Below, in pieces: positions 3,414 to 7,146 of a stretch of 8,399 nt of DNA. The notes beneath the pieces were generated by a model. It worked only from the letters and a program-made list of their open reading frames with translations, did no database searches and was not told the DNA's origin. Origin of the DNA: a virus (taxonomy: Duplodnaviria; Heunggongvirae; Uroviricota; Caudoviricetes); the IMG/VR virus record IMGVR_UViG_2671180577_000022, positions 1 through 8,399 of that record; one strand, written 5' to 3'. Position 1 is the stretch's first letter; each line of letters begins with the position of its first letter. A program made the translations under genes and the position numbers.

Positions 3414-4127
3414 ATGGTTGTTGTCTGTTCAGTTATCATGGTTTGCTCCCCAATTAATATTTTTCTTGAAAAGGATACGTTGTCACTTAAGCCCGGCTCA
3501 GTCGTTCTGGCCACCAAATGCATCAGGGCGCTTTTCCTTATGCATTATGGCAAAGTTAAAATTTTCGATATAAACCATTCCATAGTAAGTCAATATCTGG
3601 AAATTCAGCATAAGCTGACAAGAACTCATCTGACTGACGTTCCGCTTTATCTGTCACTGGAACCCAACAACCCTGCGTTGGCTGAGGCTTTAATTACCAG
3701 CCAGAGATTTTCCGGAGATACCACGGATATGTTTCTTATGATGGCATGCCTGTCGCTGTTTGAATCAGATGAACGGATATTATTATTTTTAAGTGGATGT
3801 TTATCCAGTATAAGTGCCAAAGTCAGGGCGATAATTCAGACAGATATATCAGCAAGCTGGACGCTTGGTGCGATTGCGTTACGCCTGCATATGAGTGAGA
3901 GTTTGTTAAAGATAAAACTGAAAAATGAAGGGCACATGTTCAGTCGCTTGTTGCTGGAAGAGCGGATGCGTGTTGCTGTGAATATGTTATGTTCCCGGCA
4001 TGGATATGGACAGGCTGTAGCAGAAAAATGCGGTTATTCAAGCTGGTCCTACTTTATTTCTGTATTTCACCGCTATTATGGCTTCCCGCCAGACAGATAT
4101 GTATCCAGGCAAGGGCTTGATTATTGA
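3414..4127 (+). CDS. AraC/XylS-family transcriptional regulator (prophage-encoded; start uncertain)
   Basis: C-terminal ~100 aa form a typical AraC-type double HTH (WTLGAIALRLHMSESLLKIKLKNEGHMFSRLLLEERMRVAVNMLCS ... CGYSSWSYFISVFHRYYGFPPDRY). No good SD precedes any candidate start (3414, 3438, 3540), so the N-terminus is uncertain. AT-rich, as is usual for H-NS-silenced AppY/YdeO/GadX-like regulators. Confidence 0.75.
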   Translation: MVVVCSVIMVCSPINIFLEKDTLSLKPGSVVLATKCIRALFLMHYGKVKIFDINHSIVSQYLEIQHKLTRTHLTDVPLYLSLEPNNPALAEALITSQRFSGDTTDMFLMMACLSLFESDERILLFLSGCLSSISAKVRAIIQTDISASWTLGAIALRLHMSESLLKIKLKNEGHMFSRLLLEERMRVAVNMLCSRHGYGQAVAEKCGYSSWSYFISVFHRYYGFPPDRYVSRQGLDY

Positions 4128-4155
4128 TTTTCATCTGATTATTATTTTTTGACCC

Positions 4156-4231
4156 GGCCCTTTAGCTCAGTGGTGAGAGCGAGCGACTCATAATCGCCAG
4201 GTCGCTGGTTCAAATCCAGCAAGGGCCACCA
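4156..4231 (+). tRNA. ileZ: tRNA-Ile2 (anticodon CAU, lysidine-type; formally also Met-like)
   Basis: Manual cloverleaf: acceptor GGCCCTT/AAGGGCC, D-stem GCTC/GAGC, anticodon loop CTCATAA, T-loop TTCAAAT, encoded CCA. Close to E. coli ileX as I recall it. One A-C mispair at 27-43. Confidence 0.85.
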
Positions 4232-4238
4232 TCACATA

Positions 4239-4315
4239 CCGCCATTAGCTCATCAGGAAAGAGCGCCAGCTTTCGAAGCTGGTTGCGCGGAGTTCGGGTC
4301 CCCGAAGGCGGTCCA
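4239..4315 (+). tRNA. argN: tRNA-Arg (anticodon UCG), non-canonical; possibly degenerate
   Basis: Manual fold: D-stem GCTC/GAGC, anticodon stem CCAGC/GCTGG with loop TTTCGAA (anticodon TCG), encoded CCA. Has an A-A mismatch at acceptor 6-67, an A-C mismatch in the T-stem, and T-loop TTCGGGT (G at the normally A58 position). Position between ileZ and argO matches the Stx-phage tRNA cluster. Confidence 0.5.
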
Positions 4316-4328
4316 TTATCTGTATCCT

Positions 4329-4405
4329 GCGTTGTTAGCTCAGCCGGACAGAGCAATTGCCTTCTAAGCAATCGGTCACTGGTTCGAATCCAGTACAACG
4401 CGCCA
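4329..4405 (+). tRNA. argO: tRNA-Arg (anticodon UCU), reads AGA/AGG rare codons
   Basis: Perfect cloverleaf: acceptor GCGTTGT/ACAACGC, D-stem GCTC/GAGC, anticodon stem ATTGC/GCAAT with loop CTTCTAA, T-arm ACTGG-TTCGAAT-CCAGT, encoded CCA. Confidence 0.85.
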
Positions 4406-4419
4406 CACTTATTTTCCCT

Positions 4420-4445
4420 GGCTCGCTTTTGTGGGCCTTTTTTTT
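4420..4445 (+). terminator. Candidate Rho-independent terminator following the tRNA cluster
   Basis: Stem GGCUCGC / GUGGGCC (7 bp including two G-U wobbles), loop TTTT, followed by a run of 8 T (4438-4445). Confidence 0.5.
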
Positions 4446-4499
4446 AAATGTCTCACAATTCAGGCGGTTGACTGTTGTCTGGTTTGCGGGGAGTTTGTT

Positions 4500-4676
4500 A
4501 AAAGAAACTGGCATGGTGAATCCCCCTGTGCGGAGGGGCAATCAGCGAGTAGGTATATGGGATAATCGCGGATTCAGGTGCTGGTACTGAATTCACCGGG
4601 AGGCACCCGGCACCATGCAATGGCACATAGCGCCACTCTCCAGCCCCTCTCCGGAGGGGCTGTTTATATTGATTTT
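4500..4676 (+). ncRNA. Candidate structured small RNA or multi-hairpin regulatory element ending in an intrinsic terminator
   Basis: Four consecutive stem-loops with no ORF: CCCCT/AGGGG (4522-4537); GGATTCAG/CTGAATTC (4570-4594); CCGGG/CCCGG (4596-4610); AGCCCCTC/GAGGGGCT (4642-4661) followed by a T-rich tail GTTTATATTGATTTT. The first and last hairpins share a CGGAGGGGC core. Confidence 0.3.
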
Positions 4677-4696: not shown

Positions 4697-5032
4697 TTAT
4701 GGACTTTGTTGTTTTAGCCCATAAGGACATATTTGCAGAGTGCAACGGTTATTAAAGCATTCATTCAATACGTTATCTGTATTTGTAGGGCATTCCTGGC
4801 TGTTTTTGATTAAATTCCAGAATGTTTTATTGAATGGTACTACGTTGTAAATGGTTACAGGTAGCACTTTGTTATTGAGCATGATGCCTGTGTGAGTCAG
4901 TGTAAATATACTTTCAGGAGGTAAGAAAGCATCCGATTGATACCAGATTATTAATTTTATTTTACTCCATATGACTGAAAAAGATATTCCGCATGATGGC
5001 TGGATAACTGTATCAATCACAATCCACTTCAT
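4697..5032 (-). CDS. Hypothetical orphan protein (111 aa), only minus-strand gene candidate in the window
   Basis: 111-codon ORF in very AT-rich DNA, where stop codons are frequent by chance. Minus-strand start context AAGGAAACTAAATG gives a plausible SD with ~5-nt spacing. No recognisable motif, signal peptide or lipobox. Confidence 0.4.
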
Positions 5033-5277: not shown

Positions 5278-7146
5278 ATGGTGGAAAGAACCATGGCATT
5301 TAAACACTATGATGTTGTCAGGGCGGCGTCGCCGTCAGATCTTGCGGAAAAGCTGACACATAAACTGAAAGAGGGCTGGCAGCCGTTTGGTAGTCCGGTG
5401 GCCATAACCCCTTATACCCTGATGCAGGCGATTGCAGCAGAAGGTGATGTGGTGGTCAGTGGTGCAACTGAGCCGGATTGGTACTACGTCATCGTACTGG
5501 CCGGGCAGTCCAATGCCATGGCTTACGGTGAAGGGCTTCCGCTGCCGGATTCATACGATGCGCCCCATCCGCGCATTAAGCAACTGGCCCGTCGTAACAC
5601 AGTGACTCCCGGTGGTGAAGTATGCGTATTTAACGACATCATTCCTGCTGACCATTGTCTGCATGATGTTCAGGATATGAGTACGATTAACCATCCCCGG
5701 GCTGACCTGAGCAAAGGGCAGTACGGCTGTGTCGGACAGGGCTTACATATTGCCAAAAAACTGCTTCCGTATATCCCTAATAACGCGGGGATCCTGCTGG
5801 TACCATGCTGTCGTGGTGGTTCGGCATTCACCCAGGGCACGGAGGGGACATTCAGCGAGTCCACGGGGGCCAGTCAGGATTCGGCTCGCTGGGGAGTGGG
5901 TAAGCCGTTATATCAGGATCTGCTTTTCCGCACGAAGGCAGCATTGCAGAAAAACCCGAAAAACGTTTTGCTGGCGATATGCTGGATGCAGGGGGAATTC
6001 GATATGACGAATGCCAGTTACGCCCAGCAGCCAGCAGCATTTCTTGCAATGGTACAGCAGTTCCGTGCTGACCTTGCCGGGCTGGCGGCGCAGTGTCACG
6101 GTGGAAGTCCGGCATCAGTCCCCTGGATTTGTGGCGACACGACATACGCGTGGAAACAAGAACACGGTACGCAATATGAAGTGGTATATGGTGCATATAA
6201 AGGTAAAGAATCCCAGCAGATTTATTTTGTTCCCTTTATGACCGATGGTAGCGGAGTTAATACACCGACAAACAACCCGTCAGAAGATCCTGATATTGTC
6301 GGGTCTGGTTATTACGGTTCGGCATCCCGAACGAACAAAAACTGGGTATCATCAAATCGCCCGACGCATTTCAGCTCATGGGCGCGTCGTGGCATTATTC
6401 CCGATCGTATGGCAACTGCTATTCTGAACGTAGCCGGTCGCACCTTAGCCTTCATTAGTGGTAAGGCACCGGAAATCAAACCCTCGCCCGGCGGCGACAC
6501 GCCATCGGGGCCGTCTGAAGATGCATCCATACGCACAATCTCCCTGTTGCCGACAGCCGGAGACGCTGCTGCGCAGGGCTGGAGCATTAAGAATGGCGGA
6601 ATTCAGTTGTCGGGTGGTGTATTTAAGATCGCCAAGCAGAGCAATAAAACCTGGTCCCTGACGCGCCCGGTGGATGACGCAGTCTCCCTGCTGACACGGG
6701 GTGGCAGACTGAGCTGTAAGTTTCGACTGTCAGGCGCACTGACCAACAACCAGTTCGGTCTGGGAATTTATCTGTATACCGATGTAGCGTTACCTGACGT
6801 CGTGGCGATGACCGGGACTGGTAACCCGTTCCTGATGTCGTTCTTCACCCAGACCACAGACGGCAAACTGAATCTGATGCATCACAAGAAAGCCGGAAAC
6901 ACAAAGTTGGGCGAGTTCGGGAATTACAGTAACGACTGGCAGACGCTGGAGCTGGTGTTCACCGCCGGCAGTGCCACGGTTACTCCGAAACTGAATGGAG
7001 TGGCTGGCCCGGCATTCCAGGTCATAAAAGACAGTCTGACAGTGGGACTAAATGCACTGACGCTGACGGATATTACCAAAAATGCAACGTATGGCGTTGA
7101 GATAGAAAGTCTGGTGCTGGAGATAAATGCACCGGCATCATCATAA
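5278..7146 (+). CDS. nanS-p: Prophage sialate O-acetylesterase NanS-p (N-terminal DUF1737, SGNH/SASA esterase domain, C-terminal extension)
   Basis: 622-aa ORF; alternative start ATG 5293 (MAFKHYDVV...) has the better SD (GGAAAG). SGNH/SASA active-site block [16 protein letters not shown] is present. Location just upstream of the holin matches NanS-p genes of Stx and non-Stx lambdoid prophages. Confidence 0.9.

Follow-up and report, generated by a model that had tools for sequence, protein, structure and literature searches.

A degenerate argN allele between two intact tRNA genes in the operon of an stx-less lambdoid prophage

Does a prophage tRNA operon whose middle gene has a broken cloverleaf still encode three decoders? 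We address this question for the window, an 8,399-nucleotide stretch of DNA from a caudovirus (IMG/VR record IMGVR_UViG_2671180577_000022). Positions 4117–4445 form a self-contained tRNA operon of an stx-less lambdoid prophage, made up of a promoter-like site, the genes ileZ, argN and argO, and a terminator. The tRNA genes span about 250 bp of one strand, and ARAGORN reads their anticodons as CAU, UCG and UCU from 5′ to 3′. An earlier, sequence-only reading of the window had placed three tRNAs with these anticodons here, and its limits agree exactly with those of the plus-strand tRNAs found by ARAGORN and by the Rfam tRNA model (RF00005, gathering score 29). The features are as follows.

1442–1822: Q-family ORF (antiterminator)
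4117–4145, plus strand: promoter-like site (TTGATT, 17-nt spacer, TATTAT), from a consensus scan; its end lies 11 nt before ileZ
4156–4231, plus strand: ileZ, tRNA-Ile2, anticodon CAU, intact (ARAGORN; Rfam tRNA model, 72.5 bits)
4239–4315, plus strand: argN, tRNA-Arg(UCG), degenerate allele (ARAGORN; Rfam tRNA model, 42.9 bits)
4329–4405, plus strand: argO, tRNA-Arg(UCU), reads AGA/AGG, intact (ARAGORN; Rfam tRNA model, 70.1 bits)
4420–4445, plus strand: intrinsic-terminator-like hairpin (GGCTCGC-TTTT-GTGGGCC, then T8) that closes the tRNA operon, from a terminator scan
4482–4671: STnc100-type sRNA, 3′ of the tRNAs (Rfam match)
from about 7190 on: holin-type ORFs

The operon is located downstream of Q and upstream of the lysis cassette, and the collinear annotation of E. 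coli O145:H28 agrees with this placement. Its neighbours are the cargo genes and Q at one end and a nanS-p-type esterase gene and the lysis genes at the other. Three cargo ORFs, encoding a CPBP protease, a TrmB-like protein and an AraC-like HTH protein, lie between Q and the tRNAs. In related loci, a TATTAT or TATCAT box is found at a constant distance from ileZ in all 32 distinct upstream sequences, and the 20 nt upstream are otherwise highly variable (π 0.30) around this conserved −10 box of the operon. Judged by its sequence, the segment 4117–4145 is promoter-like and may drive the operon.

To place the operon, we compared it with those of deposited phages. The tRNA cluster is matched by 297 phage records, many of which use the names ileZ, argN and argO. 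The assignment to this gene type is borne out by phage 933W (EDL933-Stx), whose ileZ is identical to that of the window (76/76) and whose argO differs by a single base (76/77); argN is identical at 69 of 77 positions. Gene order, strand and spacing are identical to those of the window in the Stx-converting lambdoid phages (933W, VT2-Sakai/Sp5, Stx2a phages), and these phages share the position of the tRNAs downstream of Q and upstream of the lysis genes. The same terminator follows argO in 933W, where it directly precedes the stx2A gene. The Stx-phage arrangement proposed earlier thus holds for the gene trio but not for its surroundings: the window contains no stx ORF, stxA and stxB are not found 3′ of argO, and the tRNAs are directly followed by the STnc100-type sRNA, where stx sits in Stx phages, and by the nanS-p-type esterase gene. 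The window also differs from the Stx phages in the three cargo ORFs, which are inserted between Q and the tRNAs. In phiSTEC1575-Stx2k, which has the tRNA layout and spacing of the window, the tRNAs are separated from the STnc100 homologue by stx2AB.

A non-Stx lambdoid prophage of E. coli O145:H28 RM12761 contains a tRNA stretch that is 100% identical to that of the window. In O145:H28 RM12761 and in O157:H7 this prophage sits near 1.08–1.17 Mb and has the gene order of the window (hokD, DUF968, RusA, Q, CPBP, TrmB-like, HTH, the three tRNAs, SASA esterase, holin, lysozyme). The prophage module of O157:H7 PV15-279 carries the argN allele of the window, along with a frameshifted regulator gene and a lysozyme gene truncated by an insertion sequence. 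Over its whole length, the window matches the best complete genome at only about 93% identity, so the O145:H28/O157:H7 prophage is a mosaic relative of the window and not the same prophage.

All three genes are recognized as tRNAs. The RF00005 E-values are 8e-15 for ileZ, about 1e-6 (1.2e-6) for argN and 4e-14 for argO, and none of the three can therefore be a chance match. PGAP, whose tRNA calls come from tRNAscan-SE, annotates the trio in O145:H28 RM12761 and O157:H7 as tRNA-Ile, tRNA-Arg and tRNA-Arg, the ileZ copies in these strains being identical to that of the window. ARAGORN calls the CAU gene tRNA-Met/Ile2(cat) and by itself would give Met. ileZ has a tRNA-Ile2-type body with a CAU anticodon, and its product would read AUA via a predicted lysidine modification by TilS. 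That the flanking tRNAs fold cleanly, as had been stated, is confirmed for both: a check of base pairs and invariant positions returned zero defects in ileZ and argO, and an A27·C43 mismatch, the sole one in ileZ, is flagged by cmscan.

The argN allele of the window scores 42.9 bits, above the gathering score of 29, compared with 54.8–55.1 bits for clean argN alleles (54.8 for 933W). The acceptor stem, CCGCCAU/AAGGCGG, contains an A6·A67 mismatch; the T stem, CGGAG/CCCCG, contains an A52·C62 mismatch; and the T loop, UUCGGGU, has G58 in place of A58. These three oddities had all been noted from the letters alone, and they are the only argN defects in the pair and invariant check; the cmscan alignment flags the two non-standard pairs. 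The molecule consequently lacks a fully paired 7-bp acceptor stem and 5-bp T stem, and with G at position 58 it lacks the invariant T loop U54 U55 C56 R57 A58, which provides the T54–A58 reverse-Hoogsteen pair. It keeps U8, A14, G18, G19, A21, U33, the G53–C61 pair, U54, U55, C56 and an encoded CCA. The anticodon arm (CCAGC/UUUCGAA/GCUGG), the D arm with A20, and U73 are intact. In the D loop, AUCAGGAAA, position 20 is occupied by an A, and the anticodon reads U34 C35 G36. The identity elements of E. coli ArgRS are A20, C35 and G36 or U36, and the window allele has A20, C35 and G36. Given the intact anticodon arm, A20, C35, G36, D arm and CCA, argN may still be charged by ArgRS. The discriminator is U73 in all argN alleles, compared with A or G in host tRNA-Arg.

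Are these lesions a feature of argN in general? An alignment of homologues answers in the negative: the lesions arose secondarily and occur together in a single clade, and they are not a family trait. G52, A58 and U67 are common to 933W argN, to 33 of 63 sampled 77-nt copies and to the Lys-type and 'X' relatives in other genera. Because 933W argN and the same fraction of sampled copies (33/63) have A58 and a cloverleaf without defects, the oddity is a property of one allele clade and not of argN as such, and the idea that homologues might conserve the odd positions is not upheld. The window allele and that of 933W differ at 8 of 77 positions, and three of these differences disrupt the cloverleaf. 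A58 is found in 933W argN and in all aligned X- and Lys-type relatives, and is missing in a decayed 80-nt allele of E. coli. Among 17 superfamily representatives, pair 6–67 is unpaired only in the window allele. An A·C mismatch at T-stem pair 51–63 occurs in 7 of the 17, and since such pairs are found in the T stems of relatives with a constrained-looking scaffold, the family may tolerate them. Within argN, no pair has changed on both sides among 34 distinct 77-nt alleles, whose divergence is too shallow to speak for or against a conserved structure, and the pair changes that do occur are either G·U-tolerated or disruptive. Compensatory changes are seen at the superfamily level only, at pairs 4–69 and 7–66.

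The constraint on the argN slot is relaxed relative to the neighbouring tRNA genes. In the 63 loci whose argN is 77 nt long, nucleotide diversity amounts to 0.073 in argN, 0.015 in argO and 0.020 in ileZ, making argN about 4–5 times as diverse as either neighbour across prophages. The spacers and flanks of the same loci reach 0.19–0.31; the 77-nt argN alleles are less diverse than the spacers, and the family as a whole is therefore not neutral. According to ARAGORN, the middle tRNA is missing in 28 loci that have the Met and Arg(tct) genes, compared with 61 loci that have all three. The middle gene is changed in length in 30 of 93 loci, by replacement or deletion of the anticodon arm, by 1-nt deletions and in one form by an argN/argO fusion, and about 30% of loci have a middle gene that is either rearranged or not recognized as a tRNA any more.

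Further damage segregates within the clade of the window allele, for which we sampled 114 loci, picked without regard to their argN sequence and strongly clonal. C74U, which destroys the encoded CCA, is found in 21 of the 114; G50A, which creates a second A·C in the T stem, in 5/114; and G10U in 4/114. No compensating change at position 6 or 62 was seen in these 114 loci. ileZ is identical in 103 of 106 copies of the window's allele clade, and the argO of the window is the majority allele (96/114 copies), with a damaged argO allele in 15/114 loci. The numbers of variable sites within the clade (8 in 77 nt for argN versus 7 in 138 nt for ileZ and argO together) do not differ significantly when taken alone, and the case for relaxed constraint is built on variant frequencies and the comparison across the family instead of on site counts. 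The within-clade excess of argN variants is modest, which is a counterpoint to decay.

Codon usage separates the three genes in a similar manner. In the three AT-rich neighbour genes, AUA accounts for 17 of 44 Ile codons and AGA plus AGG for 7 of 17 Arg codons, in agreement with the heavy use of these codons pointed out earlier. The corresponding values in stx2A are 15/20 for AUA and 8/24 for AGA plus AGG, with CGA at 2/24. CGA makes up 0 of the 17 Arg codons of the AT-rich neighbours and 8 of 111 across the window. The suggestion that the cluster boosts cargo translation is therefore supported by this argument for ileZ and argO, but the lack of CGA in the three neighbours means that the argument fails for argN.

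The exact argN allele is present in at least 560 of 5,426 complete E. coli genomes, where it is annotated as tRNA-Arg, and the 77-nt sequence is also identical in dozens of IMG/VR contigs. It is found in none of about 280 matching deposited phage genomes. The closest phage record is 92.3% identical over a 91-nt query of the gene and adjacent spacer (best of 269 matching records) and 90.4% identical over a query of the T arm and spacer (best of 281). This distribution fits a resident prophage. A search of genome contigs with a 16-nt pattern from the 5′ end of argN gave at least 120 matches, mostly to unrelated tRNAs across bacteria; the true relatives among the matches listed amount to about 10 Enterobacteriaceae loci, a sample that under-represents the taxonomic breadth. 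Both the operon and its exact sequence are already known from the annotation of hundreds of E. coli genomes, and ours is a genuine but ordinary finding. A full-text literature search on the gene names ileZ, argN and argO found no relevant paper. Sequencing or assembly error as the source of the odd bases has a negligible probability and is ruled out by the identical 77 nt in at least 560 independently assembled complete genomes.

Of the options raised by the sequence-only reading, decay is the one that the comparative data favour. The anatomy of argN, its derived lesions, the relaxed constraint and the allele distribution are direct observations, and we consider it probable that the gene is here a decaying, dispensable allele between two conserved, useful tRNAs. 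ileZ and argO plausibly supplement scarce host decoders of AUA and AGA/AGG, codons that are heavily used in AT-rich prophage genes. One lineage of argN would have gained three uncompensated substitutions (G52A, A58G and U67A), which are expected to weaken the acceptor stem, the T arm and the T54–A58 tertiary pair. Transcription of the RNA from the promoter-like site and its excision from the precursor together with ileZ and argO probably still occur, and its decoding of CGA/CGG is likely to be weak or absent owing to poor folding or charging. The gene may be dispensable because host tRNA-Arg(ICG) reads CGA and local genes hardly use this codon, and it may have survived because of its position between two useful genes. 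With the pseudogenized and decaying tRNA genes of cryptic prophages, argN shares uncompensated derived stem mismatches and the loss of an invariant T-loop base; like them, it is more diverse than the neighbouring tRNAs, has further damage segregating and is not found in deposited phages. Unlike such pseudogenes, it scores above tRNA detection thresholds and is not flagged by the annotation pipeline, and its loss of function is what we infer. As a counterpoint to decay, PGAP labels the identical sequence tRNA-Arg, not pseudogene.

It is conceivable, albeit unlikely, that argN is still a working tRNA-Arg(UCG) whose mismatches are tolerated, as in many phage tRNAs, and which, charged by ArgRS, reads CGA/CGG. 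It would then give the prophage a Watson–Crick decoder for a codon poorly read by host inosine wobble. The score above the Rfam gathering threshold and the PGAP call agree with a working gene, as do the intact anticodon stem-loop, A20, C35, G36, the D arm, G53–C61, U54, U55, C56 and CCA, and T-stem A·C pairs are common in relatives with conserved scaffolds. However, the window allele carries three uncompensated derived lesions, including the loss of the near-universal A58, and its clade accumulates further damage at appreciable frequency (CCA loss in 21/114, G50A, G10U). The exact allele is unchanged in hundreds of genomes, but this conservation in 560 genomes largely reflects clonal lineages such as O157:H7. 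A working decoder is also difficult to reconcile with neighbouring cargo genes that lack CGA and with a slot that about 30% of related loci have lost or scrambled while keeping ileZ and argO.

Alternatively, the middle gene could encode a tRNA-shaped RNA kept for a purpose other than decoding. It might serve as a decoy or antidote to host anticodon nucleases, in the processing or spacing of the neighbouring tRNAs, or as a source of tRNA-derived small RNA, and the lesions would then reflect that different constraint. We regard this as improbable for argN. The idea draws on the homologous X slot of other Enterobacteriaceae prophages, which holds a tRNA-like gene with a near-invariant acceptor, D and T scaffold and a hypervariable 5–6-nt 'anticodon' loop. 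Identity of the X gene between genera is 91%, compared with 90% for the neighbouring Met/Ile2 tRNA and 48% for the flanks, and the element has no Rfam match even at E-values up to 1. With a hypervariable loop of only 5–6 nt, the predicted X product cannot be an ordinary decoder. In sister lambdoid tRNA operons, the same genomic position is occupied by genes of the Lys(UUU) type and by Thr(UGU) genes, and one middle-slot scaffold interchangeably carries Arg(UCG), Lys(UUU) or loop-variant forms. The anticodons Lys(UUU) and Thr(UGU) are shared with phage tRNAs that counter nucleases: phage tRNA-Lys(UUU) counters the anticodon nuclease AriB of PARIS (PMC12445682, PMC10264068), and tRNA-Thr(UGU) of lambdoid phage 21 rescues cells from P2 Old (PMC12445682). 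The published resistance mutations lie in the anticodon arm, whereas the argN changes of the window lie in the acceptor and T arms. They affect the scaffold, which is exactly what the X family conserves, and leave an ordinary anticodon loop. Nor do our results tie a tRNA-Arg-targeting nuclease to the locus or reveal a nuclease that targets the tRNA that argN would replace; E. coli K-12 is not known to have a UCG isoacceptor. Deletion, fusion and scrambled alleles show, in addition, that the neighbours do not need the slot.

A structural argument for a separate role comes from G58 and A67, which create a 5-bp hairpin (54–58/63–67) with a pair probability of about 0.8 in the thermodynamic model. 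However, modelled T-stem probabilities are low in bona fide tRNAs as well (0.03 in 933W argN, 0.13 in argO), which makes the alternative hairpin weak evidence, and the 58/63 base combinations of other alleles fail to maintain it. The minimum-free-energy fold misses the cloverleaf even for ileZ, argO and the clean argN of 933W (z-scores −1 to −4). Since folding fails on bona fide tRNAs, folding energies were not used to judge argN function. In a broader version, the middle slot as such would encode a tRNA-shaped RNA with a role beyond simple decoding, for example that of a decoy or antidote to defence nucleases that target tRNAs, and diversifying pressure would act on its anticodon arm; the window allele would be one state of this RNA, possibly refolded via the 54–58/63–67 hairpin, and not a dying gene. 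We consider this version very improbable. For argN itself, a non-decoding role is improbable, and our results lend no support to the function as a processing signal or tRNA fragment that the sequence-only reading had put forward.

Returning to the decaying argN allele, the consequence for annotation is that the argN copies of non-Stx lambdoid prophages, which pipelines label tRNA-Arg, comprise a widespread allele with three cloverleaf-breaking changes. Unless evidence shows otherwise, this allele should not be taken as additional capacity to decode CGA. The codon-supplementation explanation for such operons is sharpened: ileZ and argO are conserved and in demand (AUA, AGA/AGG), and argN is expendable. 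The X slot, which lies outside the window, fits neither decoding nor simple decay and could matter more than argN.

The tRNA stretch is a known, widely annotated prophage operon whose middle gene, argN, a tRNA-Arg(UCG), is a degenerate allele. ARAGORN delimits three tRNA genes in the window, which are followed by a small RNA; the gathering score of the Rfam tRNA covariance model is 29.

4156-4231, + strand: tRNA, anticodon CAT (ileZ); ARAGORN, Rfam tRNA model 72.5 bits
4239-4315, + strand: tRNA, anticodon TCG (argN); ARAGORN, Rfam tRNA model 42.9 bits
4329-4405, + strand: tRNA, anticodon TCT (argO); ARAGORN, Rfam tRNA model 70.1 bits
4482-4671, + strand: full-length match to an STnc100-family sRNA (RF02076), Rfam 132 bits, beginning 77 nt past argO

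The Stx-phage arrangement ileZ-argN-argO proposed by the sequence-only reading is well founded: 297 phage records match the cluster, mostly Stx2-converting phages and many with these gene names annotated. Compared with the EDL933 Stx2 phage, ileZ is identical, argO has one difference (A37G) and argN has eight. The window ORFs, together with the annotated genes of a collinear E. coli O145:H28 RM12761 prophage, show that the tRNAs are preceded by DUF968, RusA, the Q antiterminator, a CPBP-family protease, a small TrmB-like ORF and an AraC-like HTH protein, and followed by a SASA-family esterase (nanS-p type), a holin, a YdfR-family protein and a lysozyme. The tRNA stretch of RM12761 is 100% identical to that of the window. 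Across its whole length, the window reaches only ~93% identity (93% coverage) with the best complete E. coli genome and is therefore a mosaic relative; as judged from sequence, this is the pattern typical of lambdoid prophages. O157:H7 PV15-279 shares the module, but its TrmB-like gene is frameshifted and its lysozyme gene is truncated beside an IS3 element.

The window contains no stx gene. In phage phiSTEC1575-Stx2k, stx2AB comes after the tRNAs and before the STnc100 homologue, which is found past stx2B (L002 5620-5814), in agreement with the published position of STnc100, 75 nt downstream of stx2 (PMC12370729). It appears that stx was inserted between the tRNAs and the sRNA in that phage. 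With STnc100 directly after argO, the window thus represents the same late-region module lacking stx. A strong terminator hairpin (4641-4662) closes the STnc100 match, and recent papers relate STnc100 to PasD sRNAs. A 111-aa ORF on the minus strand (4697-5032), between the sRNA and the esterase gene, is very AT-rich (35% GC) and uses AUA for 6 of its 13 Ile codons.

Upstream of ileZ, a promoter-like site with TTGATT and TATTAT boxes and a 17-nt spacer ends 11 nt before the gene, and a hairpin followed by T8 lies downstream of argO (4420-4445). TATTAT or TATCAT occurs at the same distance from ileZ in 32 of 32 distinct upstream sequences of related loci, in flanks that are otherwise highly variable (pi 0.30). 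We infer an autonomous tRNA operon that may be expressible without late transcription.

The sequence-only reading had described argN as non-canonical, and every detail of that description was borne out, from the limits of the three tRNAs to the odd bases. The Rfam alignment marks two non-standard pairs, A6.A67 in the acceptor stem (CCGCCAU/AAGGCGG) and A52.C62 in the T stem (CGGAG/CCCCG), and the T loop UUCGGGU places G at position 58. When all 21 cloverleaf pairs and 15 invariant positions were checked by script, only these three defects came up. U8, A14, G18, G19, A21, U33, G53-C61, U54, U55, C56 and an encoded CCA are retained, and U73 serves as discriminator base. E. coli ArgRS recognizes its tRNAs mainly by A20, C35 and G36; with A at position 20 of the D loop (AUCAGGAAA) and the anticodon UCG, these are in place.

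To place the defects within the family, we gathered 116 IMG/VR loci with the 3' end of ileZ as search pattern, without conditioning on argN. ARAGORN assigned the architecture Met-Arg(tcg)-Arg(tct) to 61 loci, Lys(ttt) as middle gene to 16 and a few other architectures, and left the middle gene uncalled in 28. A full argO is present in 93 loci; argN is 77 nt long in 63 of them, and the other 30 have a middle gene of altered length, including 80-81-nt alleles whose anticodon arm is replaced and whose T loop is broken, 66-nt alleles lacking the anticodon arm, and 76-nt alleles. The odd positions are not conserved, and we rejected them as a family trait: 33 of the 63 copies of 77 nt, the 933W form (CGGGG/UUCGAGU/CCUCG, AUGGCGG) included, are free of pair or invariant defects. 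The window's three defects are shared by 18 of the 63, and an allele with only G58 among them also exists. All outgroup forms, namely the Lys type and the X type (a tRNA-like gene of Enterobacter, Pseudescherichia, Rosenbergiella and Salmonella), have G52, A58 and U67, indicating that the window states are derived. Clean alleles score 54.8-55.1 bits with the Rfam model versus 42.9 for the window allele. Two loci among L003-L122 carry a fusion of the argN 5' half to the argO 3' half, joined at CCTTC. In several of L003-L122, argO is broken just past the anticodon loop, CCTTCTAAGCA being followed by unrelated sequence starting GCTGTGGTTGCACTCC, which suggests an insertion or rearrangement breakpoint.

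Nucleotide diversity across the 63 loci is 0.073 for argN, 0.015 for argO, 0.020 for ileZ outside the search pattern and 0.19-0.31 for spacer 2 and the flanks. By these sequence measures, constraint on the argN family is weaker rather than absent, and the gene has been lost in several lineages. At the superfamily level, pairs 4-69 and 7-66 alternate between C-G and U-A, showing that tRNA-like pairing constrained the evolution of the scaffold; an alignment of 34 distinct 77-nt argN alleles contains no compensatory double changes. We sampled the window's own clade by scanning IMG/VR with the clade-specific spacer and the first bases of argO. A52, G58 and A67 occur together in 113 of 114 complete loci, none of which has a pairing-restoring change at 6-67 or 52-62. 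Further changes in the clade argN are as follows.

C32 instead of U32: loop polymorphism, 72/113 loci
C74U: encoded CCA destroyed, 21 loci
G50A: second T-stem A.C mismatch, 5 loci
G10U: D-stem pair broken, 4 loci
G59A: T-loop change, 2 loci

Within the clade, 103 of 106 ileZ copies are identical, as are 96 of 114 argO copies. A damaged argO allele (C61A, which breaks G53-C61, and C67G) is found in 15 of 114, revealing that the flanking tRNAs also decay in some resident prophages. The clade has 8 variable sites in the 77 nt of argN versus 7 in 138 nt of ileZ and argO combined, a difference that is not significant alone in a clonal sample; this variation appears supportive of argN decay, not decisive.

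The cluster had been proposed to boost translation of nearby cargo. We counted codons in three AT-rich ORFs near the tRNAs (1968-2792, 3414-4127 and, on the minus strand, 4697-5032; 35-42% GC), in all listed window ORFs and in stx2A.

Three AT-rich ORFs: AUA 17/44 Ile codons; AGA+AGG 7/17 Arg codons; CGA 0/17 Arg codons
All listed window ORFs: CGA 8/111 Arg codons
stx2A of the EDL933 phage: AUA 15/20 Ile codons; AGA+AGG 8/24 Arg codons; CGA 2/24 Arg codons

The proposal suits ileZ and argO but not argN: codon supplementation would fit the two flanking genes and would offer no reason to keep the middle one. The E. coli host also reads CGA with tRNA-Arg(ICG) and is not known to have a UCG isoacceptor.

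We consider argN to be probably a decaying allele kept by linkage between two useful tRNAs. Transcription from the operon's own promoter-like site, probably with read-through, would yield processed ileZ and argO, both conserved and useful. In the argN product the acceptor stem is weakened, only four standard pairs are left in the T stem and the T54-A58 pair is lost; this RNA would be expected to fold poorly, to bind EF-Tu poorly or to undergo rapid quality-control decay. The gene would persist through its position between two selected neighbours. That argN is still a functional, non-canonical tRNA-Arg(UCG) seems unlikely. Its exact 77-nt sequence is present in at least 560 of 5426 complete E. 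coli genomes, O157:H7 and O111:H8 included, and always annotated tRNA-Arg; PGAP tRNA calls come from tRNAscan-SE, so argN passes that program without a pseudogene flag. No record of the phage collection has the allele. The best of 269 phage records shows 92.3% identity to a 91-nt query (gene plus adjacent spacer bases), the best of 281 shows 90.4% over the T arm, 3' acceptor strand and spacer, and the phage records have the clean 933W-type allele. The window allele thus characterizes resident chromosomal prophages rather than isolated or induced phages.

While decay, one of the two interpretations in the sequence-only reading, is the one we favour, the other, a non-standard role, fared poorly, and a non-decoding function is quite improbable. 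Two observations speak for it. In a thermodynamic model, G58 and A67 give rise to an alternative 5-bp hairpin (U54-G58/C63-A67, pair probability ~0.8), and in silico reversion of the three bases brings the T arm back; however, the same model gives real tRNAs low T-stem probabilities, and other argN alleles do not maintain the hairpin. The second observation is that the homologous slot in other genera holds X, but the window allele is damaged in its scaffold and has an ordinary loop, the opposite of the X pattern.

X occupies the argN-homologous slot in prophages of Pseudescherichia, Enterobacter, Rosenbergiella and Salmonella diarizonae, and is present in 39 IMG/VR contigs (L345-L383). Examples of this tRNA-like gene are:

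L150 1474-1547
L193 5436-5509
L166 421-493
L175 2762-2835

X shows almost no variation in its acceptor, D and T scaffold, and the 5-6-nt loop between ACAAC/GUUGU arms is hypervariable, in length as well as sequence (TAAAT, TTAAT, CACGAT, CAGGAT, CTTGGT and CATAGT, among others). The gene is labelled tRNA-??? by ARAGORN, which gives it a two-base anticodon, and it has no match to the Rfam tRNA model at E up to 1. Between genera, identity is 91% for X, 90% for the adjacent Met/Ile2 tRNA, 97% for tRNA-Thr and 48% (unalignable) for the upstream flanks. In Enterobacter mori (L193), the ileZ homologue upstream of X (~5355-5433) is heavily degenerate and uncalled by ARAGORN and Rfam; X and the subsequent tRNA-Thr(UGU) are intact.

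A Lys(UUU) anticodon arm is found on the same scaffold (L208 1403-1479, L385 4002-4077 and several of L003-L122), revealing that the middle slot switched its anticodon arm and kept the rest of the gene. One form is canonical, with loop CUUUUAU and a clean T stem; the other form, which is commoner, combines the loop CCUUUAA, with C at position 33, and a mismatched A51.C63 pair. Like argN, the gene lies downstream of Q, and Thr(UGU) and Gly(UCC) usually follow it instead of argO. In published work (PMC12445682), cells were rescued from the tRNA nucleases AriB and P2 Old by phage tRNAs with Lys(UUU) and Thr(UGU) anticodons, among them the tRNA-Thr(UGU) encoded by lambdoid phage 21. Since Lys(UUU)-type and Thr(UGU) genes occupy the equivalent position downstream of Q in sister operons, an anti-defence role for the slot is conceivable by analogy. 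The window itself offers little novelty; the interesting loose end lies in these related loci.
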